Positions 1-12,526 are shown, counted from the stretch's first letter. The stretch: DNA of 13,502 nt from Candidatus Micrarchaeota archaeon (GCA_040754495.1 JBFMCO010000037.1:1-13502); one strand, 5' to 3'. The notes: a model not told the origin generated them from the sequence alone. Made by a program: numbers and translations.

Positions 1-1024
1 AGTAGGCCGAGGCGCAATCCAGGCTCGTCCCGCACTCGAAAGGCGCCGGAGTCGGTATGCCGGCAAACGACTCGAGCCCCTCGCTCAGCTCCTTCTCGTA
101 TATGAGGTTAAGGAAGTTCGAGTAGAATACCTTGTCGAACTGCGTGTGCTCGAAAGAGACGGATACGTACTGCGGGAAGTCTTCGCCGTAGTCTATGCCG
201 TCTGCCGTCCGCCGCACCGGGTAATAGCGGTAGTCCGGCATGGACGCGCCGTCATAGGTCGGCCCGCGGAAAGGCGAGACCTCGTCCTTGAGGCAGAAGC
301 TCTCGTTCTGGACGCGCTCGTCGGGCTTGTCGTATGCCGCGCCGGAGTATTTCTGCCCGAACTCGTCGGGCGAGATGAGGTAGTTCATGTACCGCTCCTT
401 GGCCCCGGCGACGGGGTTCGAGTTGCAGTTCAGGTCGCTGAGCGGGAAGAACCAGCGGTAGTGGTCGAACTCCTCGAACGAGCTGCCGACGCCGAGGCGG
501 AAGGTGTTGATGAAGCTTCCCTTGGAGTTCTTCAGGAAGTTGAGCAGGAGGTCGTCGGTGCGGTACATGCGGCACGTCGTCCCGTACAGGCCGACCGGGC
601 TCTCCTTCCTGATTTCGTCGGCTGCCGCCACCTTGCCCGTGTCGCGGGCCTCGGACTCGAATTTCTGCGAGTCGCGGTAGCTCGGGATGGGCGTGGGGTT
701 GTACTTCAGGCTGCCGCACAGCTGCGCGATGCAGTCGCCCTGCAGGCAGCCGCCGCTCGCGTTGCTGCAGATGGGCACGGACACGTCGGATGTGTTCTCT
801 GCGGTGCCCACCGTCACCTTGATGCTGACGTTGCAAATGGTCGCGGTCGTGTTGCACGAGTTCGTGCCGAGGAAGGTCGTCTCGGGGCCGGAATCCTTGA
901 GGCCGTCGCACTGCTCGGTCGTTTCGTTGTAGATGCAGCATCCGATGGAAACCGGCTTCTTCATCGTGCAGCCTGCTATCAGGAGCACGAAGGCGACCGA
1001 CAGGATGACGAGGAGCTTGTTCAT
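1..1024 (-). CDS. Cys-rich secreted lipoprotein (partial, C-terminus beyond window start; 341 codons visible)
   Basis: Own translation: ATG at 1024 directly follows the M6 TAG (TAGATG) with GGTGG upstream. The frame is open to base 1. It begins MNKLLVILSVAFVLLIAG-C (lipobox, Cys19) and has 15 Cys, 6 N-x-S/T sequons and host-like C/G-ending codons. Absent from the ORF track. Confidence 0.88.
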   Translation of the reverse strand, partial: MNKLLVILSVAFVLLIAGCTMKKPVSIGCCIYNETTEQCDGLKDSGPETTFLGTNSCNTTATICNVSIKVTVGTAENTSDVSVPICSNASGGCLQGDCIAQLCGSLKYNPTPIPSYRDSQKFESEARDTGKVAAADEIRKESPVGLYGTTCRMYRTDDLLLNFLKNSKGSFINTFRLGVGSSFEEFDHYRWFFPLSDLNCNSNPVAGAKERYMNYLISPDEFGQKYSGAAYDKPDERVQNESFCLKDEVSPFRGPTYDGASMPDYRYYPVRRTADGIDYGEDFPQYVSVSFEHTQFDKVFYSNFLNLIYEKELSEGLESFAGIPTPAPFECGTSLDCASAY

Positions 1025-2092
1025 CTAGACCACCTTCCCCATCGCCCGGAGCAGGTCCATCGAATCGCCGCCCAGGACAGTTATCATGTACCTTATAAGG
1101 ACTATGGTGAGGGCGAACGCTATGAAAGGCTGCAGGAGCACGGACGAATAGACCGACGAGACGTCGCTGCGGAGCTGGTCCAGCGACAGCTTGGACGAGC
1201 CGCTGCTTGATGTCGCGGTGCTCCCGAAGGTCGAGTATATGGAGTACGAGAGGCCGCTGAAGGTCGGGAAGCAGAGCGGCGCGTCGAAGCCGGCCGGCTT
1301 GGCGGGGGCCTGGTATGCCGGCTTCACGAAGCCCGGGTCGGTTATGATATAGACCACCGGGTAGATGTAATAGAACCCGAGGGCCATCGCGATGAGGAAC
1401 GCGCCCACTCCGCGCGTGAAGAAGAAGGAGCGCAGCAGGAGGCCGATGGGGAGGAAGAAGCTGAGCATGTTGTTCTTCACGTAATCCGCGGTTATGATGA
1501 TTGTGTTGAGGCCGATCAGGAGGACGGTCATGAGCTGGTTCAGCAGGCGGTAGGTCTCCGCATCCTTGTACCACGACGATACGTACTGGCCGCTGAAGAC
1601 CGGGACCCCTATCAGGCTGATGTAGAGGTTGAGCAGGTTGAGCGGCACGGCTGCCGCGTCCGTGACCTCCCCCTGGATGTCGGCGAACGCGTTCGCCTTG
1701 TCGGCAAGGCGGCATTTGAGCAGGTCGATGGAGTTCGTGAGCTTCTCTATCGTTATGTACTCGCCGCCGCATTCGAAGGCAGGGCAGTTGATGCCGCTGC
1801 ATATGAAATACTGGAGCATGAACTCCTCGACGGAGTTCAGCATCATTATCAGGAACGACACCATGAGGATGGTCGCGAAGCTGTTCAGGAGCTCCGCCTT
1901 GGCGAAGCGCTCGGTCTCCTGGGAATTGAACGCCCTCGCGATGGCCAGCACGCCGGCGTATATTATTATGATTGCCACGCACGCGACGATCGTCATCGGC
2001 AGGAACTGGAGGTTCGGCGGGAGCATGCTGTACACCCCGCCGAGGGACGCATCCGAGTTGAACCCTATCAGGTATCCGGAGACCTCTGCCAT
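1025..2092 (-). CDS. M6: multi-pass membrane protein, paralogue 6 of tandem array (355 aa)
   Basis: Family motifs RFAKAELLNSFATI, FLPIGLLLRSFFFTRGVGAFLIAMALG and C-terminal VLGGD. The start lies 1 nt after the M5 stop, with GTGAT upstream. Confidence 0.92.
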   Translation of the reverse strand: MAEVSGYLIGFNSDASLGGVYSMLPPNLQFLPMTIVACVAIIIIYAGVLAIARAFNSQETERFAKAELLNSFATILMVSFLIMMLNSVEEFMLQYFICSGINCPAFECGGEYITIEKLTNSIDLLKCRLADKANAFADIQGEVTDAAAVPLNLLNLYISLIGVPVFSGQYVSSWYKDAETYRLLNQLMTVLLIGLNTIIITADYVKNNMLSFFLPIGLLLRSFFFTRGVGAFLIAMALGFYYIYPVVYIITDPGFVKPAYQAPAKPAGFDAPLCFPTFSGLSYSIYSTFGSTATSSSGSSKLSLDQLRSDVSSVYSSVLLQPFIAFALTIVLIRYMITVLGGDSMDLLRAMGKVV

Positions 2093-2093
2093 A

Positions 2094-3161
2094 TCACATC
2101 AGCTGCACTATCCTGGAGAGGTCAATTTCCTCTCCCAGGAAACGATTTATGTAACCGACCGCCGCCGCGGCCCCGAGGAGGGCCAGCGAAGGGATGAAAA
2201 CGCCCACGATGAATGCATTCCCTGAGAGCTTTATAACCTCTAGCGTCTGGTCCCCGCCGTCGTCGAAGACGTCGTCGCTGAGGTCGCCGTCGAACACGTT
2301 GCTGAGGTCCACCTTGTCGCCTATGTCCTCGTCCGCGTAATTGAACGCCGCCGAGCCGGTGGGCGCGAGTATGCGCGCCGCCTTGAAGTCTATGTAGAAT
2401 GCCGCCAGTATGAACGGATAGACGATGAGGAACGAGATGGCGACGGACATGAGGAGGGACCCCAGCGTGCGCAGGTACGGCAGGGCCCGGAGGAAGATGC
2501 CCAGGGGGAGGAAGAAGAGGACGAAGCCGCTGAACACGAAGCGGAGGATGAACAGGTAGTTCAGGATGGAAAGATAGGACAGCATGAGGGAGTTGAAGGC
2601 CGCGCCGAGGGCAGATGAAAGCAGGCCGTAGCCGGAGTTGGGCGCGTTCGTGATGCTGACGGCACCGGCGCCGCCTGCGGGGCTCGGCAGGATGGGGCCG
2701 AAGAGGCAGAAGAGCCATGAAGGTCCGACGTCCTCGCACTCGTTGCGGCCGAATGCCTGGAGGATGTTGTACGCCCCCATGTGGTAGCGGGCCACATGCA
2801 GGAGGTCGTGCACCCATATGCCGGACTCCGTGAGGTAGCTGTTCGCGGCGTCGAAGACGGTGAGCCCGGCCGGGACGCCGCTCGCCCCCACGTCCAGCAG
2901 CTCGTAGATGGAGCCGACATCCAGCACGCAGAAGGTGCTTATCCCGCCAAGCATGATGCCGACCGCGACCATCGAGATGATGAGCTGGAAGAACTCGGTC
3001 TTGGCCCACAGCGTGATGCGCGGATTCGACAGCGCGTTCCCGGCCATGTAGCTCATGCCGATGACCATGGTCGTGACGATCGCCGAGACGGCCGTCAGCG
3101 GATAGACTATGCCCTGTATGATTTCGTTCGCGTCCGCCGAGCATATTGTTTCTATCGCCAT
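2094..3161 (-). CDS. M5: multi-pass membrane protein, paralogue 5 (355 aa; alternative ATG at 3167)
   Basis: Motifs LWAKTEFFQLIISM, FLPLGIFLRALPYLRTLGSLLMS and FLGEEIDL. Start trimmed from the ORF track (3227) to the ATG after GTGAT at the M4 stop. Confidence 0.9.
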   Translation of the reverse strand: MAIETICSADANEIIQGIVYPLTAVSAIVTTMVIGMSYMAGNALSNPRITLWAKTEFFQLIISMVAVGIMLGGISTFCVLDVGSIYELLDVGASGVPAGLTVFDAANSYLTESGIWVHDLLHVARYHMGAYNILQAFGRNECEDVGPSWLFCLFGPILPSPAGGAGAVSITNAPNSGYGLLSSALGAAFNSLMLSYLSILNYLFILRFVFSGFVLFFLPLGIFLRALPYLRTLGSLLMSVAISFLIVYPFILAAFYIDFKAARILAPTGSAAFNYADEDIGDKVDLSNVFDGDLSDDVFDDGGDQTLEVIKLSGNAFIVGVFIPSLALLGAAAAVGYINRFLGEEIDLSRIVQLM

Positions 3162-3166
3162 AAGCA

Positions 3167-4123
3167 TCACGATATCTTCATCAGCGCCGAGACGTCGACC
3201 TCGGCCCCGGCCAGCTTCGAGAGCCACCTGAATGCCGCGAAGAAAGCGAGCAGGGAGACGATGGTCTGCATCGTGCCCCGGACAAGGAATATGAAGAGGA
3301 ACCCGTCCACCGTGCCGAGCATGGTGTCGAAATTGCTTATGGCCTCGTCCGCGTTCCCGTAGGAGAAGCCGGCTTCGGTGGAGAAGTCATGGACGTCGCA
3401 GTCCGGCTCGGGCAGGCTCATGCTCGCCACGCTCGGCGCCCCCGTGGAGGTGAGCTCGTCCATGAATATCACGGCCAGGGGAAGGAACAGATAGAGCGAG
3501 ACGGCAAGGCCGATGAACAGGGCCCCGGCCCCCCTCGTGAAGCGGAACGTTCGGAGGAGTATCCCTATCGGGAGCAGAAGGGTGAATGCGTAGGTGTCGC
3601 CGAAGCTGGCCAGCGTCCGCAATGAGCTAAGCTCGGCTATGGACAGGCTCAGGGCCTGCAGCGAGAGGGTGAGCGGGGGGATGAGGGCCGAGAACGAGCC
3701 GCACGGGGCTACGCTGAACCCGGCCCCGCTTATGCCGCAGTACATGGATTTCGTGGATTGCGGCACGAGCTCTATCATGTAGCCCCTTATGAGGTTGAAA
3801 ACGTCCGCGTGCGTCTGCAATGATGCGTCTATCTTGCTCAGGCTGGCTGCCTGCATGTCCGGCGCTATCGAGGAGAACATCTCGTTGAGGGCGGCCTCCG
3901 CGGAAAACAGCAGGGCTATCATGAATGCCGTCGCGATGAGCTGGTACAGCTCTTCCGTGGATAGGAACTTCAGGTCGTTCAGGCTGAACGCGATTGCGAC
4001 CATGTAGAGGACGCCAAGGAGCAGGAGCGATGTCGCTATGGCGACCATGGCGACGGTCTCCCAGGGCTGGTGGGCCGCGAAGGCGAGCGGGACGAGCAGC
4101 AGCAGTATCAGCAGTCGCTTCAT
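3167..4123 (-). CDS. M4: multi-pass membrane protein with signal peptide, paralogue 4 (318 aa)
   Basis: MKRLLILLLLVPLAFAA signal peptide. Motifs FLSTEELYQLIATA, LLPIGILLRTFRFTRGAGALFIG and LAGAEVDV. ATGA overlap with the M3 stop, GAGGA upstream. Confidence 0.92.
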   Translation of the reverse strand: MKRLLILLLLVPLAFAAHQPWETVAMVAIATSLLLLGVLYMVAIAFSLNDLKFLSTEELYQLIATAFMIALLFSAEAALNEMFSSIAPDMQAASLSKIDASLQTHADVFNLIRGYMIELVPQSTKSMYCGISGAGFSVAPCGSFSALIPPLTLSLQALSLSIAELSSLRTLASFGDTYAFTLLLPIGILLRTFRFTRGAGALFIGLAVSLYLFLPLAVIFMDELTSTGAPSVASMSLPEPDCDVHDFSTEAGFSYGNADEAISNFDTMLGTVDGFLFIFLVRGTMQTIVSLLAFFAAFRWLSKLAGAEVDVSALMKIS

Positions 4124-5880
4124 AGTATCCTCGTCAGGCCTGGTATCTCGATGTCCCCGCCTATTATCTGCGAGAACGAGCGGATGAATATCAGCGTTAC
4201 TACTATGTTCAGGATGGGCAGGACGTACGCCGGCAGCATGAGCGCGGACACGGCCTTTATCTCCTCCTTGCCCACCATGCCCTCCTGGGAGCGCCTGCTG
4301 AACTCGCCCGGGGAAATCTTCGGCGGCCCGGTGGGCGAGGGGTTGCACAGGTCGGCGCAGGAGAGGTAAATCGGAGGCCCGTAGGTATATTGCTGGGGAA
4401 CGAAGTTGCAGGCGTCGCACTCGTGCGCATCGACGTCCTCCTTGCTCGGGAGCACCCACACGCACGACTGCGTCGCGTCAAGGTTCGCGGGGCAATTCAG
4501 CGCCGCATCCCCGCTGCATCCTGCCGGCCGCTCCATTTCAGGCCTGCGGGCGAACTTGCAGAAGTCGCTGCCCGATACGCAGCCGCCTGCCGAGCAGTCG
4601 CCTTTCAGCGGCGGGACGCTCCTGCACTTTTCCGGGCATTCGCCGTTCGCCATGCTCCCGTCGTTGTAGATGTCGCTGTTCCCGCCGCCGGGGTTCACGT
4701 AGCGTATCATCTTGCAGCGGGAATCGAGTGCGGCGCATGCCGATATGGCCTCGGGCACGTTGCACTCGGGCACGAGCGGATAGGGCAGGTCCCTGCATGA
4801 GAGCGGGCAGTCCGTCGCCTGGCAGCCGTAGATGGTCACGCTCCCGAACGTCCTGCTGGAGGCGCTCCCGGAATCAAGGGCCGCCACCCCTGATGTCACC
4901 GATTCTTCGCTCTGCCCCTGGCTCTCCAGGTAATCGATGAGGTCGGTGCGCGAGAAGAACTGCGTCCCGCCGTCGTTGTAGAAGCGGGGCGGGGGAATCA
5001 TGCAGGCGGCTGGGCACGGCTGGAGGTTCGGTTCTATGCTCGATGCCCCGAACATTGTTATGTTTAGCGTCAGCCAGTCGAAGACGTACATGAGGGGGAA
5101 GACGTACATCACACCGATTCCGACCGCGATGAGGAGCCCGCCCATCTTGCGCGTGAAGAAGAACGAGCGCGCGATTATGCCTATCACGAGGATTATGGGG
5201 GCGAGCTTGAAGGAGATTTCCTTCACGAAGAACTCCTGCGCGTAGAGCGAGGAGAGCATGTTGCCGAGGTACTCGAGGACCGTATTCCTGCGCTCGACGT
5301 CCATGAGGCGGCCCGCGGTGAATGTGAACGACGTCGAGGCCTGGAGGAGCGGGATGAGCATCGGCGTCGAGAGGCCGAAGCGGGTATACGCCCATTTGGC
5401 CGCGCTCGCAGCCTCGACGACGTTGTCGCGCGCCTGCTTCTCGGCCGACTCGGTGATTCCGGCAAGGTACTGCTCGCTGACCGTGACGGCGCAGTTCGTG
5501 CTCCCGGAGCACGAGAAGCCCAAATTCGAGTTCTGCACGATGGTCTCGAGGTAAGCGTCCAGCAGGAGGGCCGTGAATGTGAATGCGACGACGATTATCG
5601 CGCTCACGAAGACCTGCACCATCTCGTTCTGCGCCCATGCCTTGATTTCCGGCATCTCGAATGCGTGGCCCAGCATGTACCCTATCGCGACCAGCAGGAT
5701 GGACAGCATGATGGCGCCGATGGCGAGGGCGCGCCAGTCCTCTGCGATGCCTATGTTGCTGGCCTCTGCGGTCTCCTCGATGGACGCAGTGGCGTAGGCG
5801 AGATACGGAAGCGCGAGAATCAAGGCGAGGAGCAGGAGCCCGAGCTTCCTGCGGAGTCCGGTTTTTCCTTCATCCCTCAT
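4120..5880 (-). CDS. M3: multi-pass membrane protein with large 20-Cys extracellular insert, paralogue 3 (586 aa)
   Basis: Signal-peptide-like N-terminus (RKLGLLLLALILALPYLAYA). Motifs AWAQNEMVQVFVSA, IGIIARSFFFTRKMGGLLIAVGIG and IIGGDIEI. ATGA overlap with the M2 stop. The track's 890 aa ORF is over-extended into M2. Confidence 0.92.
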   Translation of the reverse strand: MRDEGKTGLRRKLGLLLLALILALPYLAYATASIEETAEASNIGIAEDWRALAIGAIMLSILLVAIGYMLGHAFEMPEIKAWAQNEMVQVFVSAIIVVAFTFTALLLDAYLETIVQNSNLGFSCSGSTNCAVTVSEQYLAGITESAEKQARDNVVEAASAAKWAYTRFGLSTPMLIPLLQASTSFTFTAGRLMDVERRNTVLEYLGNMLSSLYAQEFFVKEISFKLAPIILVIGIIARSFFFTRKMGGLLIAVGIGVMYVFPLMYVFDWLTLNITMFGASSIEPNLQPCPAACMIPPPRFYNDGGTQFFSRTDLIDYLESQGQSEESVTSGVAALDSGSASSRTFGSVTIYGCQATDCPLSCRDLPYPLVPECNVPEAISACAALDSRCKMIRYVNPGGGNSDIYNDGSMANGECPEKCRSVPPLKGDCSAGGCVSGSDFCKFARRPEMERPAGCSGDAALNCPANLDATQSCVWVLPSKEDVDAHECDACNFVPQQYTYGPPIYLSCADLCNPSPTGPPKISPGEFSRRSQEGMVGKEEIKAVSALMLPAYVLPILNIVVTLIFIRSFSQIIGGDIEIPGLTRIL

Positions 5881-6845
5881 CCGACCACCTTGAGCGCCTT
5901 GTTTATGCCGCCGAGGAACGTGATTGTGAGGGCGAGCGTCAGGTTCGGCAGGAAGAACGCCTGCGGTATGGCCCGTGCCACCTTCCAGAAGCTCGTCTCC
6001 GAGTCGCAGCCGCCCATGATCTGGTCGTTGATGACGCTGGCGTACATGCTGCAGTCCGAGAAAACGACCTGGTCCATCGCGCCGTTCAGGGCATAAAGCG
6101 TGGGGACTATGACGTAGAGGCCGACTGTTATCGCTATGAGCATGTTGCCCATGTTGCGCGCAAACGGCAGCACGCGGAGCAGGAGGGCAACAGGCAGGAG
6201 CCATTTCAGCAGGTCGGTGGAGAACCCCAGCACGAGCGTCTGCAGGTTCAGGCTTATGAGGGCCGGAAGGGCGAAGTTGAGGGCTATCATGTCGAACTGC
6301 ATCGCATACGCCTTCCTGTACGCGCCGAGGGGGACGGATACGCCTCCGGTGATGGGGTTGTACAGCGAGAATATGAGCGTGGAGTCCATCTCGTTGCCGA
6401 CGGCTTCCTTTATCATCCTCTTGACCGTGCTGTCGGTCTGCTTCGTGATGGTCTTCATGTAGCAGGTGGCGATGGCCTGGGGCGCCTCGGCGCCGGTGTA
6501 GCACCCGTTCGGGCTCATCAGGCCGAGCCCGTTCGGGCCGAGCACGAAATCGAGGAAGCTCGTCAGGGTGTTGCACGAGAAGAAGAGCACTCCGCTTATG
6601 GCCACGATGAGAATCGCGGAGAACATCAGGTGGTAGAGCTCGTCCTTGGCCAAAACAAGCATGTTGGCGTTGTTCATAGACGAGCCGATGGCGTAGATTA
6701 TCCCGATGACAAGGATTGTGAGCGAGACCGCGATGCCGATGTTGATTCCTGCCTCGCCGGTGATGACGTTGTCGAAAAGGCTCTGCGCGCACTGGGCCGC
6801 AAAGGATGCCGAGACAAGCATGAGGAGGAGCAGGGGGAAGCGCAT
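5877..6845 (-). CDS. M2: multi-pass membrane protein with signal peptide, paralogue 2 (322 aa)
   Basis: MRFPLLLLMLVSASFAA signal peptide. Motifs VLAKDELYHLMFSA and LLPVALLLRVLPFARNMGNMLIA. TGATG overlap with the M1 stop. Confidence 0.92.
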   Translation of the reverse strand: MRFPLLLLMLVSASFAAQCAQSLFDNVITGEAGINIGIAVSLTILVIGIIYAIGSSMNNANMLVLAKDELYHLMFSAILIVAISGVLFFSCNTLTSFLDFVLGPNGLGLMSPNGCYTGAEAPQAIATCYMKTITKQTDSTVKRMIKEAVGNEMDSTLIFSLYNPITGGVSVPLGAYRKAYAMQFDMIALNFALPALISLNLQTLVLGFSTDLLKWLLPVALLLRVLPFARNMGNMLIAITVGLYVIVPTLYALNGAMDQVVFSDCSMYASVINDQIMGGCDSETSFWKVARAIPQAFFLPNLTLALTITFLGGINKALKVVG

Positions 6846-8020
6846 CAGACCAGCCTCTGTATGCCCGGCATCAGGTACTCGCCTCCGAGGGCGGCCGATA
6901 TGCTCTTCGTGCCTACTATGGTGATTATGGCCACCAGGATGGTGTCGACATATGTCACAACGACCAGGTTGTTGATGGCCTTGAGGAATGGGAGGAAGGC
7001 GTCGAAATCCTCGCCTATGTCGGGCGTGAGGAAGGTCGAGAACGCCAGCATGAGCCCCCATGTTATCGGTATTATGATTTGCATGATTATCGGATAGACC
7101 ACCTTGGTCAGTATCTCCCAGCACGGCTGGAAGCCCGCCCCGAGGGTGGCTATGGCCACGATGATGCATGGCGGGAGGGCGAAGCCGATTTCCCCGAAGA
7201 GTCCGACGAGGATGCGGACGTACCACTCGCCGCAGATGAACGTGGCTCCTGGCGGGATTACGAATTCCAGGGCCTCGAGGGCGGAGTCCGGCAGGTCGGG
7301 CGACGGCACGGTTATTACGTTGTGCGAATAGTCCAGCATGAACAGGGAGAACGGGAAGATTACGTATGCGCCTATCACCATCGCGATGAGCGTGTTGCCC
7401 ATCTGGCGCGTGAACGGGATTATCCTGAAGATGAATGCCAAGTAAATCAGCTTGTCCCCGACCGCGAGGAAGAAGTCGAGCAGGACCTTGAGGGCCTTGT
7501 AGATGAATATGGTGTTCGTGAGGCCGGTTGTCGCCTGGTTAAAGAATATCATGAACGATGAGTAGCCGGACGAGGGTACGCCCCCCGTAGAGGCGAAGAC
7601 GTAATAGCCCGCGACGAGGTTGGTCGAGAACCCGGTCCTCATGGAGACGGCGTGGTAGGCGTATATCATGTCCCTGTAGGCGTCGGTCGCGCGCGTTATC
7701 ATGCCGTCTATGGTCGCCAGCGCGTCTGCCTTGTAGTCGCTCTTGCCCGAGATTATCTCCACGGCCGGCTTGTCCCCGTGGAATAAGCCTATCACGGCCA
7801 CGAAGAGTATGAGCGCCACGATGAGCTCGCGCAGCTCCTGCTTCACCCACGCCTTCAGCTGCTGGGCGTTGATGGATTCGGCCACCATGTAGCAGGCCGC
7901 CAGGATTATCACGACGAGGACCGCGACGACGCCGAGCGCAGGGGCCAGGCTGTCGAGCATAGTCGCTGCGCTGGAGAGCGAGAGCGCCGCGAGGAGGAAT
8001 AATGCGACTTTCGGTCCCAC
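6845..8020 (-). CDS. M1: multi-pass membrane protein with signal peptide, first gene of array (391 aa, GTG start inferred)
   Basis: Motifs AWVKQELRELIVA, FIFRIIPFTRQMGNTLIAMVIG and ALGGEYLM. GTG at 8020 gives MGPKVALFLLAALSLSSAA and lies 21 nt below TTTATAAA. Alternative starts are GTG 8035 or an internal ATG. Confidence 0.88.
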   Translation of the reverse strand: MGPKVALFLLAALSLSSAATMLDSLAPALGVVAVLVVIILAACYMVAESINAQQLKAWVKQELRELIVALILFVAVIGLFHGDKPAVEIISGKSDYKADALATIDGMITRATDAYRDMIYAYHAVSMRTGFSTNLVAGYYVFASTGGVPSSGYSSFMIFFNQATTGLTNTIFIYKALKVLLDFFLAVGDKLIYLAFIFRIIPFTRQMGNTLIAMVIGAYVIFPFSLFMLDYSHNVITVPSPDLPDSALEALEFVIPPGATFICGEWYVRILVGLFGEIGFALPPCIIVAIATLGAGFQPCWEILTKVVYPIIMQIIIPITWGLMLAFSTFLTPDIGEDFDAFLPFLKAINNLVVVTYVDTILVAIITIVGTKSISAALGGEYLMPGIQRLV

Positions 8021-8035
8021 GCTCGGAATATCCAC

Positions 8036-8056
8036 ACTATATTTATAAAGTATAGT
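8036..8056 (-). promoter_or_regulatory. TATA box (TTTATAAA, 8042-8049) of the membrane-array operon, embedded in an ACTATA-N9-TATAGT inverted repeat
   Basis: Consensus archaeal TATA at leaderless distance from GTG 8020. The flanking 6-bp dyad is seen directly. Confidence 0.65.
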
Positions 8057-8126
8057 CAGGCGCGATGGCCAGGCCTGCCGCGCCGGGGAGCCGTTTTTGG
8101 CGCAAACCGCAGCATTCCGCAACTTA

Positions 8127-8134
8127 TTTATTAA
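8127..8134 (+). promoter_or_regulatory. TATA box (TTTATTAA) of the ArsR-type regulator
   Basis: 20 nt upstream of ATG 8155, consistent with a leaderless transcript. Confidence 0.6.
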
Positions 8135-8154
8135 GGCCCGGACATGATTTTTGC

Positions 8155-8829
8155 ATGGAGGAGGACAAAATCGTCCTCGACCGCAGGAGCTTCGAGGCGC
8201 TCGCGGTCGACAGCAGGGTGAAGATTCTCAAATCCCTCAAGGAGAGGAGGAAGACGCTCTCAGAGATAGCCAAGGAGCAGGGGATGTCGGTTTCCGGCGT
8301 CAAGGAGCACCTGGAGACCCTGGAGAAGGTCGGCCTTATAGAGAAGAGGGACGACGGCCACAAGTGGAAATACTACGAGCTGACCAGGAAGGGGAGCGAC
8401 ATCGTCGCTCCGCGGGAGCTGCGCGTCTGGATACTTCTTTCGATATCCATGGTCGCCCTTGTCGCCTCCATGGTCGCGATATTCTCGCCTCCCCAGCTCG
8501 CCGCGGATGCGCTGGCGCCAGAGGCTCCGGCTCCGGAAGCCCCCCTGCTGGCAATGAACGCGGAGACGGCAGCTCCGGCAGAGGCCGATGCCGCAGGCGC
8601 AGTCCCGGCCCCTGAAGCGGCGGGCGCTGCAGAGCCCGCGGAAGGGCTCAGGGCAATGGCAGTGGAGAAAACTACCCGGGACGCAGAGGCGGGCGGCGAG
8701 GAGGCCGCTTCGGAGCCGGCAGGGCCTGACATGACGGTCCCCGTGGCGGTTTCCGCGGTGAGCGCGCTGACTCTTTTCGCATGCGCAGCCGTGCTAATCA
8801 GGAACAGGATGAAGCCCATATCGCTCTGA
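8155..8829 (+). CDS. ArsR-family winged-HTH transcriptional regulator with two C-terminal hydrophobic helices (224 aa)
   Basis: FEALAVDSRVKILKSL...TLSEIAKEQGMSVSGVKEHLETLEKVGLI...KYYELTRKG is an ArsR-like wHTH, followed by TM (VWILLSISMVALVASMVAIF), an Ala/Pro/Glu linker and a second TM. Start trimmed from 8065 to 8155. Confidence 0.88.
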   Translation: MEEDKIVLDRRSFEALAVDSRVKILKSLKERRKTLSEIAKEQGMSVSGVKEHLETLEKVGLIEKRDDGHKWKYYELTRKGSDIVAPRELRVWILLSISMVALVASMVAIFSPPQLAADALAPEAPAPEAPLLAMNAETAAPAEADAAGAVPAPEAAGAAEPAEGLRAMAVEKTTRDAEAGGEEAASEPAGPDMTVPVAVSAVSALTLFACAAVLIRNRMKPISL

Positions 8830-8997: not shown

Positions 8998-9633
8998 TCA
9001 GAGTAAATCTTTCACAAAATCCACCGCTTCCCGCATATTTTTACAAACGCCGTCCGCTTTGGAAAAATCCTGCCGGAGTGAAAATTCGGTAGGTATTGCG
9101 ACGGTGAATATTCCCGCATCCTTCGCTGCCGTAACACCGCTCGATGTGTCCTCAAAAACAAGCGCCTTGCTGGCTTCGATGTTCAGGGTTTTGAGGGCTT
9201 TCAGGTATAAATCCGGGGCAGGTTTGCCCCTGATGGACCCGTGAACCCCTAGAACAACGTCAAAGTAATCAGTCAGATTTGCTTTCTTTATTTTTAATTC
9301 GGCTTCTTTCTGTGTGCTTCCTGAGATAGCGCCAAGTTTTTTTGAACGGAGAAATTCGAGAGATTCTTTCACATAGGGCAGCGTATCGATCCTGTGCGAA
9401 TCGAACAAATCAAGCATCACCTGTTTTTTCTTAATTGAGATTCCGGCTTCTAGACCGTATTTTGACCTGAGAATTTTTTCGATCTCTTCCGAGGGCTTGC
9501 CGGCGTACTGGGTATATTCTTCTTTTGTTATCCGGACATCGTATGGTTTTAGAACTTCGACCCAGCCCAGAAACTGAAAGCGTTCTGTGTCAAGCAAGGT
9601 CCCATCTACATCGAAAAAAACCGCTTTTAGCAT
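8998..9633 (-). CDS. HAD-superfamily phosphatase, beta-phosphoglucomutase/CbbY-like subfamily IA (211 aa)
   Basis: Motif I FFDVDGTLLDTE, motif III GKPAPDLY, motif IV VFEDTSSGVTAAKDAG. Confidence 0.93.
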   Translation of the reverse strand: MLKAVFFDVDGTLLDTERFQFLGWVEVLKPYDVRITKEEYTQYAGKPSEEIEKILRSKYGLEAGISIKKKQVMLDLFDSHRIDTLPYVKESLEFLRSKKLGAISGSTQKEAELKIKKANLTDYFDVVLGVHGSIRGKPAPDLYLKALKTLNIEASKALVFEDTSSGVTAAKDAGIFTVAIPTEFSLRQDFSKADGVCKNMREAVDFVKDLL

Positions 9634-10454
9634 CTCATATCCCTCACGAGGCGATTGATTAAAAGTACCGCTTCCTCCATAGTTTTAACCGCTATGAGAG
9701 GATCTTTTACATCATGAGGAGGATCGTAGCAGATTGGGAAGACTGCAGCGCCCGAATCGTATCCAAGAAATCCCATCAGCTTGGCCGGACTGTCATCGAT
9801 CAAGAAAACAAGATCGCCCGATGCGACAGATTGATCCGAGAGGATTTTTTTCCAGGTTTCCGGATCTTTCTTCAGCCCCCACCCTTCGCCGCTGACGTAG
9901 CATGCGTTACCGGCAGTTCTCGATGCCAGAACGCGGTATTTTACGGGAGGCAGATCGTACCTTTCAAACATAGTCTCAAGAGCGGGTCCAAATGCAGCCA
10001 AGAAAAGACGCGGGTGATTATCGGTAACAACGCTGAGTATTGTGCCATCCGGAAGATTTTTCAAAGCCTGGAAAGACCGGGGGTTCATTGATTCAAGGGC
10101 GACCGGTCCGAGCGGGACAGAAAGGTATTCGAAAAATCTTTCGCGGGATTGTTCCGCAACCACTCTGATCAAAGCATCCGGATCAGCACCGCAAACAAGG
10201 GACAGGGAAAATGCCAGCCGGTTTATGTCGTCGTATGGGTCCAGCTCGCTTTGTTTCAGCCGTTCTTTTGCCTCTTGATAAAGGGAACGGAAATCACCCT
10301 CCTTTATCCTGCGGACCGAAGGGACCGATGTTGCCATATCATGAAGAACCCTTGACCGCAGCGCAGCGCCAAGAGAAACGTCTCTTCTAGCTCGCTCCAC
10401 TTTTTTATCGCACATCAGCGGTCCGCCAAGATCAACGAAAACGTATGCTCGCAT
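9627..10454 (-). CDS. Divergent HAD-superfamily hydrolase (275 aa)
   Basis: Start trimmed to MRAYVFVDLGGPL (GTGAT upstream). Motif II VVTDN, motif III KKDPETWK, motif IV LIDDS. Overlaps the next start by 7 nt. Confidence 0.72.
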   Translation of the reverse strand: MRAYVFVDLGGPLMCDKKVERARRDVSLGAALRSRVLHDMATSVPSVRRIKEGDFRSLYQEAKERLKQSELDPYDDINRLAFSLSLVCGADPDALIRVVAEQSRERFFEYLSVPLGPVALESMNPRSFQALKNLPDGTILSVVTDNHPRLFLAAFGPALETMFERYDLPPVKYRVLASRTAGNACYVSGEGWGLKKDPETWKKILSDQSVASGDLVFLIDDSPAKLMGFLGYDSGAAVFPICYDPPHDVKDPLIAVKTMEEAVLLINRLVRDMRC

Positions 10455-10458
10455 TTCA

Positions 10459-11238
10459 TCACTTCGTGCGGGCAAGCAAAAGATCCGCAATCTTTTCCGC
10501 CGCCTCTGCGCGGATTGCCGAAAATGACGGCCAGTCATTGACGTCCACGAAATAGAACTCGTTTCTAGAAGTATATATGAAATCTCCGCCAAAAACATCC
10601 AAATCAAGGCAGCGCGCCATGCCTCTCGCATAATCGGCAAGCTCGGCTATCTTGGGTTTAGACGCGGCATCGGCAAATGCAAGCGGGAAAATTTCATTCC
10701 CGATACCGTAAAATTTGAAGGTCCTGCCTCCAATCAACTCTTGCACTAGGTAAAAAGAATCGTCAATTTCCCTGATTAATGCCGGGAGGGCCGCAATATC
10801 CTCTTTTGAAGAGATCAGCAACGTATCCCGGCTCTTTCCATGAGTTGCTGTCCTTTTGAGAACAAACGGGGGAACGAGCCCCAGCACTTCATGTTCTTTG
10901 AAGACTCTTGTTTCGGGGAATGGTATGCCTGCTTTGGCCATGGTGTCATGGAGATTGGATCGCCTGAGACAGGATTGGACGGCTGCCGGAGTATTTACGA
11001 CAGGGGCATGGGCGGCCGCACAGGATAACACGCTGAGGGCATCCGGACCCCGTGCCATGGAGAATATAAGCTGCGGGTACGGGAAATCCAGTCGCAGGCC
11101 TTCGCTTCTCATCATTTCGACGGTTTCAACCAGAGGTTTTCTCCTGAGGGCGTTTCCCACCGCATCAGCTATCTGATTGTCTGCTTCGGGCTTGCCGGCC
11201 AATTTTTTCTCTCTGTAAAGTCCCAGTATCCGCACCAT
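10459..11238 (-). CDS. ATP-grasp fold enzyme (RimK/ITPK1-like, 259 aa)
   Basis: ATP-grasp motifs PFVLKR..THG, YLVQELIGG, FGGDFI and YFVDVNDWPSF. GGTGG SD upstream of the ATG. Confidence 0.85.
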   Translation of the reverse strand: MVRILGLYREKKLAGKPEADNQIADAVGNALRRKPLVETVEMMRSEGLRLDFPYPQLIFSMARGPDALSVLSCAAAHAPVVNTPAAVQSCLRRSNLHDTMAKAGIPFPETRVFKEHEVLGLVPPFVLKRTATHGKSRDTLLISSKEDIAALPALIREIDDSFYLVQELIGGRTFKFYGIGNEIFPLAFADAASKPKIAELADYARGMARCLDLDVFGGDFIYTSRNEFYFVDVNDWPSFSAIRAEAAEKIADLLLARTK

Positions 11239-11623: not shown

Positions 11624-12526
11624 ATGCTCGACAATGTTTTCAAGGCGAGGATAAAGGCTCCCGAATTCGCTGGCATTAAGGCGTGGCTCAACTCCAAGCC
11701 CCTCAGGATGGAAAAGCTGAAGGGGAAGGTCGTTCTGGTCGATTTCTGGACGTACACCTGCATAAACTGCATGCGGACGCTCCCGTACCTGAAGAGGTGG
11801 CACGGGAAATACGCGAAAAAGGGCCTCGTCATAGTCGGCGTGCACTCGCCCGAGTTCGAATTCGAGAAAGGCGCCGATAAGGTGAAGGAGGCCGTGAAGA
11901 AATTCGGGATAAAGTACCCGGTCGCGGTGGACAGCGGCATGCAGACGTGGCGGGCGTTCGACAACCACTACTGGCCGGCCAAGTTCCTCGTGGACAGGGA
12001 GGGATTCATCTCGTACGTTCATTTCGGGGAGGGCAACTACGCCCAGACCGAGATGGCAATCCAGATGCAGCTCGGGCTGAAGGCGAAGCTGGAGAAGGAG
12101 GCGTTCCCGGGCTACATGTTCGACCAGAGCCCTGAAACCTACACCGGCTTCGCCAGGAACTTTGGCCTCGGCTCCGGCCTGGTCTGCGACCAGAGCGGCT
12201 GCAACGTCTATGTGGACCCGGGCAACCACGCGATGAACATCGTCTATCCACACGGCCAGTGGGTCCAGGAGAAGGAGTATCTCGAGCTGAAGAAGGCGCC
12301 GGGCCGCATCTCCTACCGGTTCAACGCCAGGGAAGCGAACATCGTCATGTCCCCGGTGGGGAAGCAGTGCAAGGCCGAGATATACATAGACGAGAAGAAG
12401 ACCGGCGAGATTACGATAGGCGGACCGGACATGTACAAGGTCTTCCAGGACAAGAAATACGGCGACAGGGAGCTCGCCATCATGTTCAGCGGGAAGGTCC
12501 GGGTGTACGCATTCACGTTCGGTTGA
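11624..12526 (+). CDS. Thioredoxin-fold redoxin resembling the DipZ C-terminal region (300 aa)
   Basis: WLNSKPL...KGKVVLVDFWTYTCINCMRTLPY...GVHSPEFEFEK...NHYWPAKFL...HFGEGNY, and C-terminal VYAFTFG. Confidence 0.9.
   Translation: MLDNVFKARIKAPEFAGIKAWLNSKPLRMEKLKGKVVLVDFWTYTCINCMRTLPYLKRWHGKYAKKGLVIVGVHSPEFEFEKGADKVKEAVKKFGIKYPVAVDSGMQTWRAFDNHYWPAKFLVDREGFISYVHFGEGNYAQTEMAIQMQLGLKAKLEKEAFPGYMFDQSPETYTGFARNFGLGSGLVCDQSGCNVYVDPGNHAMNIVYPHGQWVQEKEYLELKKAPGRISYRFNAREANIVMSPVGKQCKAEIYIDEKKTGEITIGGPDMYKVFQDKKYGDRELAIMFSGKVRVYAFTFG

Follow-up and report, generated by a model that had tools for sequence, protein, structure and literature searches.

TrwI of R388, a multi-helix inner-membrane protein of the VirB6/TrbL type encoded with VirB3/VirB4-type components, forms a homo-pentamer together with VirB5. 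In host-dependent bacteria, tandem VirB6 paralogues (Rickettsiales) and amplified trw genes (Bartonella) may serve to vary the contacts made at the cell surface. In archaea, CedA and CedE of the Ced DNA-import system of Sulfolobales and TedA of Thermoproteales are VirB6-like channel proteins, chromosomally encoded, polytopic, and accompanied by a VirB4-like ATPase, CedB (Beltran et al. 2023, PMC9905601; for CedE and CedD, PMC11823120), and the N-terminal hairpin of CedA was found to resemble a pilin (PMC9905601). Tandem amplification of surface components of type IV secretion systems (T4SSs) has been reported, as has the T4SS of Patescibacteria (candidate phyla radiation, CPR), in which virB6 was essential for epibiotic growth in one strain (PMC12102498). 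The locus described here is an operon of six diverged paralogues of a multi-pass membrane protein, followed by the gene of a giant Cys-rich lipoprotein, in a 13,502-nucleotide stretch of DNA from Candidatus Micrarchaeota archaeon (GCA_040754495.1 JBFMCO010000037.1:1-13502; hereafter the window), which takes up contig C37 entirely; the genome bin amounts to 1.63 Mb in 72 contigs, with a completeness of 80%. The six CedA/VirB6-like subunits and the lipoprotein are probably the membrane channel and surface part of a chromosomal, T4SS/Ced-like machine distributed across Micrarchaeota.

The six open reading frames (ORFs) of the array follow one another in the same orientation, all on the minus strand (1025-8008), neighbours overlapping or leaving a gap of at most 4 bases, and are numbered here as positions 1 to 6 in order of transcription (M1-M6 in the initial annotation, made from the sequence alone). 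Position 1 (6845..8008, 387 aa) is retrieved at E 3.5e-89 by the family profile built from the six paralogues, and an alternative GTG start at 8020, preferred in the initial annotation, would give 391 aa. Position 2 (5877..6845, 322 aa) is retrieved at E 4.3e-99. Position 3 (4120..5880, 586 aa) carries an insert of ~300 aa with 22 Cys in the second outer loop, the one that leads to the last helix, and is followed by position 4 (3167..4123, 318 aa), position 5 (2094..3167, 357 aa), and position 6 (1025..2092, 355 aa), which is the most conserved of all. Orthologues of position 6 (34-96% identity) bear only the name 'hypothetical protein, Candidatus Micrarchaeota'; in the search of representative sequences, the best 150 of 3,316 matches were inspected. 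The six co-directional genes for products of 318-586 aa proposed at the outset were confirmed, and so was the DPANN affiliation of the organism, a member of the Micrarchaeota (now Microcaldota) according to the names of its homologues.

The six proteins could be aligned over their full length by MAFFT, with 16-22% identity to position 6, and since the family profile finds each of them at E 1e-89 to 1e-131, their paralogy is not a matter of chance. Among the six, E67 of motif 1 and L214, R221, R227, G230, and P245 of the motif 2 region are invariant, and E67, R221, R227, G230, and P245 remain so among 33-35 family members. Positions 1, 3, and 6 carry the C-terminal LGG[ED] motif, which has degenerated in positions 4 and 5 and is lacking in position 2. 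The invariant residues of the alignment lie in the ordered motifs described in the initial annotation, and the LGG[ED] pattern is as given there. The only DNA repeat common to most of the genes is a 37-nt stretch encoding motif 2, which is 62-78% identical in five of the six, a sixth match and other short matches of low identity being scattered. With so little repetition at the DNA level, the duplication is old, which agrees, apart from this stretch, with the earlier claim of an old expansion devoid of evident DNA-level repeats. Five membrane helices per protein were predicted by hydropathy and by an AlphaFold2 (AF2) model, with the N-terminus, which lacks Lys and Arg, predicted outside and the C-terminal tail predicted in the cytoplasm. 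Motifs 1 and 2 fall in short basic turns that are predicted to be cytoplasmic, R221, R227, and G230 being placed at the turn between helices 3 and 4, and the Cys residues (4, 6, 22, 3, 4, and 6 in positions 1 to 6) are mostly found in two predicted outer loops, one after helix 2 and the other after helix 4. No meaningful Pfam family was found for the six proteins, the lipoprotein, or 35 family members.

For structural likeness, the AF2 model of position 6 (predicted local distance difference test, pLDDT, 66.5) was compared with 48,161 solved chains, among which the best match was TrwI/VirB6 of R388 (Z 8.7 over 226 of 261 residues, root-mean-square deviation (rmsd) 5.8). Three TrwI entries (PDB 7O3V, 8RT9, and 8RTD) reached Z 8.4-8.7 with ~85% of the TrwI chain aligned, and the second fold match was DotA of the Legionella T4SS (Z 7.7). 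The TrwI and DotA matches cover the whole protein, and those ranked below them cover only a helical hairpin. In a Foldseek search of the PDB, the same model had no match at E<=0.001, and TrwI chains appeared only at E ~6-7. No known transporter or enzyme, an outcome considered in the initial annotation, was matched by structure, TrwI/VirB6 being at the top.

Sequence models of the Ced system weakly match the same array. The CedE (NF053657, E 4.5e-4) and CedA (NF041796, E 1.5e-3) models match position 4 at residues 137-229, which correspond to helix 3 and motif 2. This protein, the closest of the six to CedA and CedE, is the best match of both models in the genome, and position 5 is the only other protein matched by the CedA model (E 0.034). 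When all six frames of the 1.63-Mb genome were searched at E<=10, positions 4 and 5 of the window were the only proteins matched by the CedA and CedE models, and these matches fall in the same region of the profiles (~positions 103-200). Such matches point to a distant relationship. Among 33 members of the family, the four most frequent NCBIfam matches were CedE, CedA, the VirB2-type pilin TrwL, and an unrelated septation protein, and the fifth was Mbov_0395, a pilin-like conjugal transfer protein that is also weakly matched by the N-terminal hairpin of position 1 (residues 17-76, E 0.011). These pilin-like N-terminal matches fit the published pilin likeness of the CedA N-terminus (PMC9905601).

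A VirB4-type motor is encoded elsewhere in the genome. On contig C32, a single family member, the seventh, is followed by a gene for a 264-aa protein (p264), a gene inserted in reverse, and a gene for a 524-aa ATPase, the latter located 4 kb from the seventh member and not beside the window array; a second ATPase gene opens contig C71, preceded by the end of a p264-like gene. The ATPase matches DUF87/AAA_10/TrwB in Pfam, and its best NCBIfam models are CedB (94.7 bits) and the VirB4-like conjugal ATPase CD1110. In TrwK/VirB4 of R388, the part that aligns with it is the C-terminal domain (E 3e-7). The p264 protein consists of a two-helix hairpin and a soluble domain, and its model, folded with 63 homologues, had a pLDDT of 90.3. 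All of the top 11 Foldseek matches of this model were TrwK/VirB4 (best E 6.3e-4), and in VIA-align its residues 68-254 were superposed on residues 219-376 of TrwK (Z 12.2, rmsd 3.2), the next unrelated chain reaching Z 7.3. In its build, p264 corresponds to a VirB3-like membrane anchor joined to a VirB4 N-terminal domain, and at the level of the whole system a VirB4-family ATPase is encoded with the putative channel protein. The TrwK-like fold of the p264 model and the CedB/VirB4 matches of the ATPase sequence together indicate that the motor is a VirB4 split in two, namely, one or two membrane-anchored N-domain proteins and a separate C-domain ATPase.

The distribution of both components was surveyed in 81 genomes of the phylum (the unpublished G029 contributing to tallies only), with the presence of the ATPase defined at E<=1e-40. 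The family and the ATPase were both present in 76 genomes and both missing from the same five, which belong to three families. In other orders, each genome holds 6-8 family matches and one ATPase; in the order of this organism there are mostly 11-16 family matches and 1-3 ATPase matches, and the present genome has 21 family matches. Homologues come as sets of six, not mostly as singletons, and the ATPase accompanies them in 76 of 76 family-bearing genomes, as would be expected from the reading proposed in the initial annotation. Linkage was assessed within 9 kb on each side of the ATPase gene in 40 loci of 38 genomes. In half of these, a tandem run of family genes is followed by two p264 genes and the ATPase gene, contiguous and on the same strand, the run comprising six family genes in 14 loci and three to five in 6, some of the shorter runs being cut by the end of the 9-kb flank. 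Five loci have a single family gene followed by p264 and the ATPase, two are cut by a contig end, and three have neither a family gene nor p264 upstream of the ATPase. Altogether, one or two p264-type genes precede the ATPase in 37 of the 40 loci.

Other genes were observed around the motor. The gene in reverse orientation between p264 and the ATPase on C32 (10253-13036, minus strand) encodes a 927-aa protein of no known family; in G050, a genome of the same genus, p264 and the ATPase gene are only ~30 bases apart. Downstream of the ATPase (C71 1880-5806) are encoded a ~150-aa protein that has 2-3 membrane helices and, at its N-terminus, a CxxC zinc ribbon, a ~244-aa soluble protein, and a ~800-aa protein with membrane helices at both ends. 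These three genes, which have no family match, are kept in 35-39 of the 42 loci compared and probably encode further parts of the machine. A conserved ~245-aa protein with 6-7 membrane helices and no family match is encoded directly upstream of the motor-linked arrays of two complete genomes (G016:C1 10771-11502 and G038:C1 10619-11368). In several genomes of family f1 (e.g., G066:C32, G074:C1, and G064:C1), a second ATPase paralogue is represented by two neighbouring pieces that cover residues 1-164 and 207-522. Some of these pairs are separated by an in-frame TGA or TAG, and a further split, a frameshift, or read-through could be the cause.

Directly downstream of the window array, the gene of the giant Cys-rich lipoprotein (2..1024, minus strand) is cut by the contig end, leaving the N-terminal 341 aa with the lipobox LIAGC. 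This protein is 35% identical (E 3e-68) to a 1444-aa protein encoded after the corresponding array of a groundwater micrarchaeon (Hainich) and 31% identical (E 1e-29) to a 1283-aa protein of the present genome, and its orthologue in G050 has ~1471 aa and 56 Cys. The gene of the 1283-aa lipoprotein follows a second six-gene array, found by the family profile on contig C31 (34548-41854), and a third and much more diverged six-gene array is located on contig C1 (92-7893). Phylogenetic analysis revealed that positions 1-6 of the window are one-to-one orthologous to positions 1-6 of the C31 and Hainich arrays (tree support 98-100), with a Shimodaira-Hasegawa-like approximate likelihood ratio test (SH-aLRT) value of 100 for position 1 across window, C31, and Hainich and a support of 100 for position 2. 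In this tree, the window array is closer to the Hainich array, from another species, than to the C31 array. Position 6 formed one clade across all arrays tested (support 95), as did the singletons (support 99); between the arrays of this order and the motor-linked arrays of other orders, the tree recovered these two clades only, and no deep orthology of positions 1-4. Position 3 is long and Cys-rich in other arrays too (697 aa with 36 Cys, and 760 aa with 26 Cys). All three array types have orthologues, 55-67% identical, in genomes of the same genus, and therefore the block duplications are old. Contamination as the source of the third array was ruled out by the same-genus orthologue of each array type. 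On C31, downstream of the array and the giant lipoprotein, a gene at 3057-4787 (minus strand) encodes a 576-aa protein with the C-terminal proteolytic domain of Lon protease, and the array-lipoprotein-Lon arrangement was also observed in G059 (49% identity).

Several observations weigh against a T4SS/Ced-like machine. The Z of 8.7 to TrwI is only 1.4 above that of a designed helical repeat, the pLDDT of the model is middling, and such Z values can come from the common arrangement of helical bundles. At the sequence level, PF04610 (TrbL/VirB6) matched nothing in the six proteins and nothing at E<=10 in the 35 members or the six-frame genome, and the family-profile search of PDB sequences returned nothing relevant and no T4SS protein. 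When the 98-sequence family alignment was compared by hhalign with a 45-sequence TrwI alignment, itself a narrow profile (at least 51% identity) that may miss a distant relationship, the probability was 1.4% (P 0.037), and the match was out of register and similar to reversed controls. The CedA and CedE scores of 18-22 bits are far below the curated cut-offs of 330/400 that define equivalogs, and membrane helices attract spurious matches. Regarding the other components, no stand-alone pilin was recognised among the conserved small membrane proteins near the arrays or up- and downstream of the motors, and the neighbouring genes that were scanned (window, C31, C1, C32, C71, and Hainich locus) included no relaxase, coupling protein, or integrase. 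Finally, co-occurrence across related genomes is not independent evidence, p264 and the ATPase have no family gene within 9 kb in 10 of the 40 loci, and in the present genome no ATPase adjoins any of the three arrays, a CedD-like ATPase on contig C14 being apart from them as well. Monoderm T4SSs are not known to have pili, so a pilin is not obligatory. The likeness to VirB6 and CedA proposed in the initial annotation stands in part: it is favoured by the top fold match, by the weak but genome-specific matches to CedA and CedE, and by the co-occurrence and co-linearity with the ATPase, and membership by sequence in PF04610 or among TrwI proteins did not hold. By fold, weak sequence signal, and context, the family is best described as a distant CedA/VirB6-like relative, and neither as a member of PF04610 nor as an equivalog of CedA.

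In the machine favoured here, each subunit would span the membrane with five helices, its N-terminus outside and its C-terminus inside, and the motor would comprise one or two p264 proteins, with their hairpin and VirB4 N-domain fold, and the 524-aa ATPase as the VirB4 C-terminal domain. Array and motor share one operon in many Micrarchaeota and have become separate in the order of this organism; in the present genome, the motor would be supplied by C32, together with the seventh member, and by C71, and the array has been block-duplicated into the three diverged versions of the window, C31, and C1. The conserved motifs predicted on the cytoplasmic side (E67; R221, R227, and G230; the LGGE tail) may dock to the p264 proteins or to the ATPase, and one copy of each paralogue could build a pseudo-sixfold ring under a hexameric ATPase, a possibility to which the fixed number of six, the one-to-one orthology, and the duplication of arrays as blocks lend indirect support. 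The Cys-rich outer loops, the ectodomain of position 3, and the lipoprotein may constitute the outer part that contacts the cell envelope or a partner cell, whose folding would be aided by the products of nearby thioredoxin/DsbD-type genes. Candidate substrates would be DNA, which is what Ced takes up, but also protein and other macromolecules.

Compared with the described systems, the machine would have an unusual build. Ced and Ted share with it an archaeal, chromosomal setting and polytopic subunits with a VirB4-like ATPase; unlike them, it has six fixed paralogues instead of one or two, large Cys-rich outer loops and a giant lipoprotein partner, and a split VirB4, and no pilin of the CedA1/TedC type was found. 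Ced imports DNA, which in the present system would be one candidate substrate among several. In contrast to R388, in which TrwI is likewise encoded with VirB3/VirB4-type components, there are six distinct paralogues and no VirB5. The tandem VirB6 genes of Rickettsiales are likewise diverged, placed side by side, and provided with variable hydrophilic extensions, but the Rickettsiales and Bartonella systems are bacterial, with clear PF04610 and variable copy number, whereas the arrays described here always have six genes in fixed order and are ancient and block-duplicated. The T4SS of Patescibacteria offers a further parallel, being chromosomal and widely kept in ultra-small episymbionts, with VirB4, VirB3-like, and VirB6 components; it is bacterial, however, and resembles monoderm conjugation systems in type, its VirB4 is not split, and an array of six paralogues is absent.

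The main rival explanation is that the six paralogues and the lipoprotein make up a separate envelope complex, which anchors, exports, or folds disulfide-rich surface proteins, is loosely or historically linked to the motor, and works without it in this organism. The location of all three arrays apart from every VirB4-like ATPase is what this explanation would predict, the window and C31 arrays are each closely coupled to the gene of a giant Cys-rich lipoprotein and have thioredoxin/DsbD-type genes in their vicinity, and there is no profile-level similarity to VirB6. Nevertheless, the presence and absence of array and ATPase are identical across the 81 genomes, the order array-p264-p264-ATPase is co-linear in half of the 40 loci, the CedA and CedE models match only window genes in the genome, and TrwI is the top fold match, all of which make a separate complex rather unlikely. 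Far less probable still is that the array is the cargo of a mobile element, either an integrated conjugative element or a plasmid remnant, whose transfer it would serve rather than the cell. Mobility is typical of T4SS-like genes, three diverged arrays occur in the genome, and the window has a stretch of low GC content at 9000-11000 (47-50% vs ~60% for the rest of the contig and the genome); yet the array does not differ from the genome in GC content, neither the window nor the related loci examined showed a relaxase, integrase, or coupling protein, and 76 of 81 genomes across the phylum possess the family, its gene order being conserved and its one-to-one orthology tracking relatedness by and large. 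Subunits of a small-molecule transporter or of a membrane enzyme unrelated to secretion, which polytopic proteins with invariant charged residues (E67, R221, and R227) might suggest, are similarly improbable, because no such family was matched in Pfam, NCBIfam, or PDB by sequence or fold, the invariant residues fall in predicted cytoplasmic turns and not inside the membrane, and transporters do not typically come in fixed sixes with giant ectodomains.

Beyond the T4SS/Ced-like machine itself, it can be tentatively suggested, with a good deal of doubt, that the six-paralogue ring and the lipoprotein form an envelope structure for docking to host cells and exchanging macromolecules with them, the three arrays being alternative surface modules that use the split-VirB4 motors in common and determine the choice of partner. 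In the micrarchaeon ARM-1, cryo-tomography revealed a 21-nm barrel-like docking structure to which no genes were assigned (PMC11329633), and the ring would be one candidate for this platform.

A full-text literature search found no paper linking Micrarchaeota with VirB6, CedA, or a T4SS as a described machine. New from this window are the genome-wide specificity of the CedA and CedE matches to positions 4 and 5, the presence in one genome of three diverged arrays of types common to its genus, and the finding that, throughout the 81 genomes, family and ATPase are strictly either both present or both absent. How DPANN archaea attach to their hosts and exchange material with them is an open question, for which the array gives concrete gene candidates. 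A conjugation-like, chromosomal system would be kept in 76 of 81 genomes of organisms with genomes of ~1 Mb, in an unusual build that combines a split VirB4 and giant surface proteins rich in Cys with a fixed set of six VirB6/CedA-like subunits, and in parallel to the T4SS of the equally small Patescibacteria, reportedly a requirement for their epibiotic growth (PMC12102498). Such a system would extend the domesticated conjugation machinery of archaea beyond Ced and Ted of Crenarchaeota (PMC9905601), and a fixed hetero-hexameric VirB6 ring, if true, would be a new architecture for the inner channel of a T4SS.

Among the neighbouring genes of the window, a gene divergent from the array (8065..8829, plus strand; likely true start, the ATG at 8155) encodes an ArsR-type helix-turn-helix (HTH) protein (PF01022 HTH_5, E 7.6e-11), a possible regulator. 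This protein has a long Ala/Pro/Glu-rich linker and a C-terminal membrane helix and may be a membrane-tethered regulator, its location being the only link to the array; at the Hainich locus, the corresponding place is occupied by a PadR gene. Disulfide-handling genes recur beside the Cys-rich arrays. In the window, a protein with Redoxin and Thioredoxin_10 domains in Pfam (11624..12526, plus strand) is encoded in synteny with the array, a 67% identical gene lying upstream of the orthologous array in G050, and is a probable helper for the disulfide-rich outer parts. On C32, DsbD_TM and Redoxin/Thioredoxin_10 genes (6503-8315) are directly upstream of the seventh family member, the latter gene being paralogous to that of the window, and the Hainich array is adjoined by a DsbA/Thioredoxin_4 gene. 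The low-GC stretch of the window contains, all on the minus strand, a gene for a HAD hydrolase (8998-9633) and two ORFs without Pfam match (9627-10640 and 10459-11238), and may be acquired DNA.

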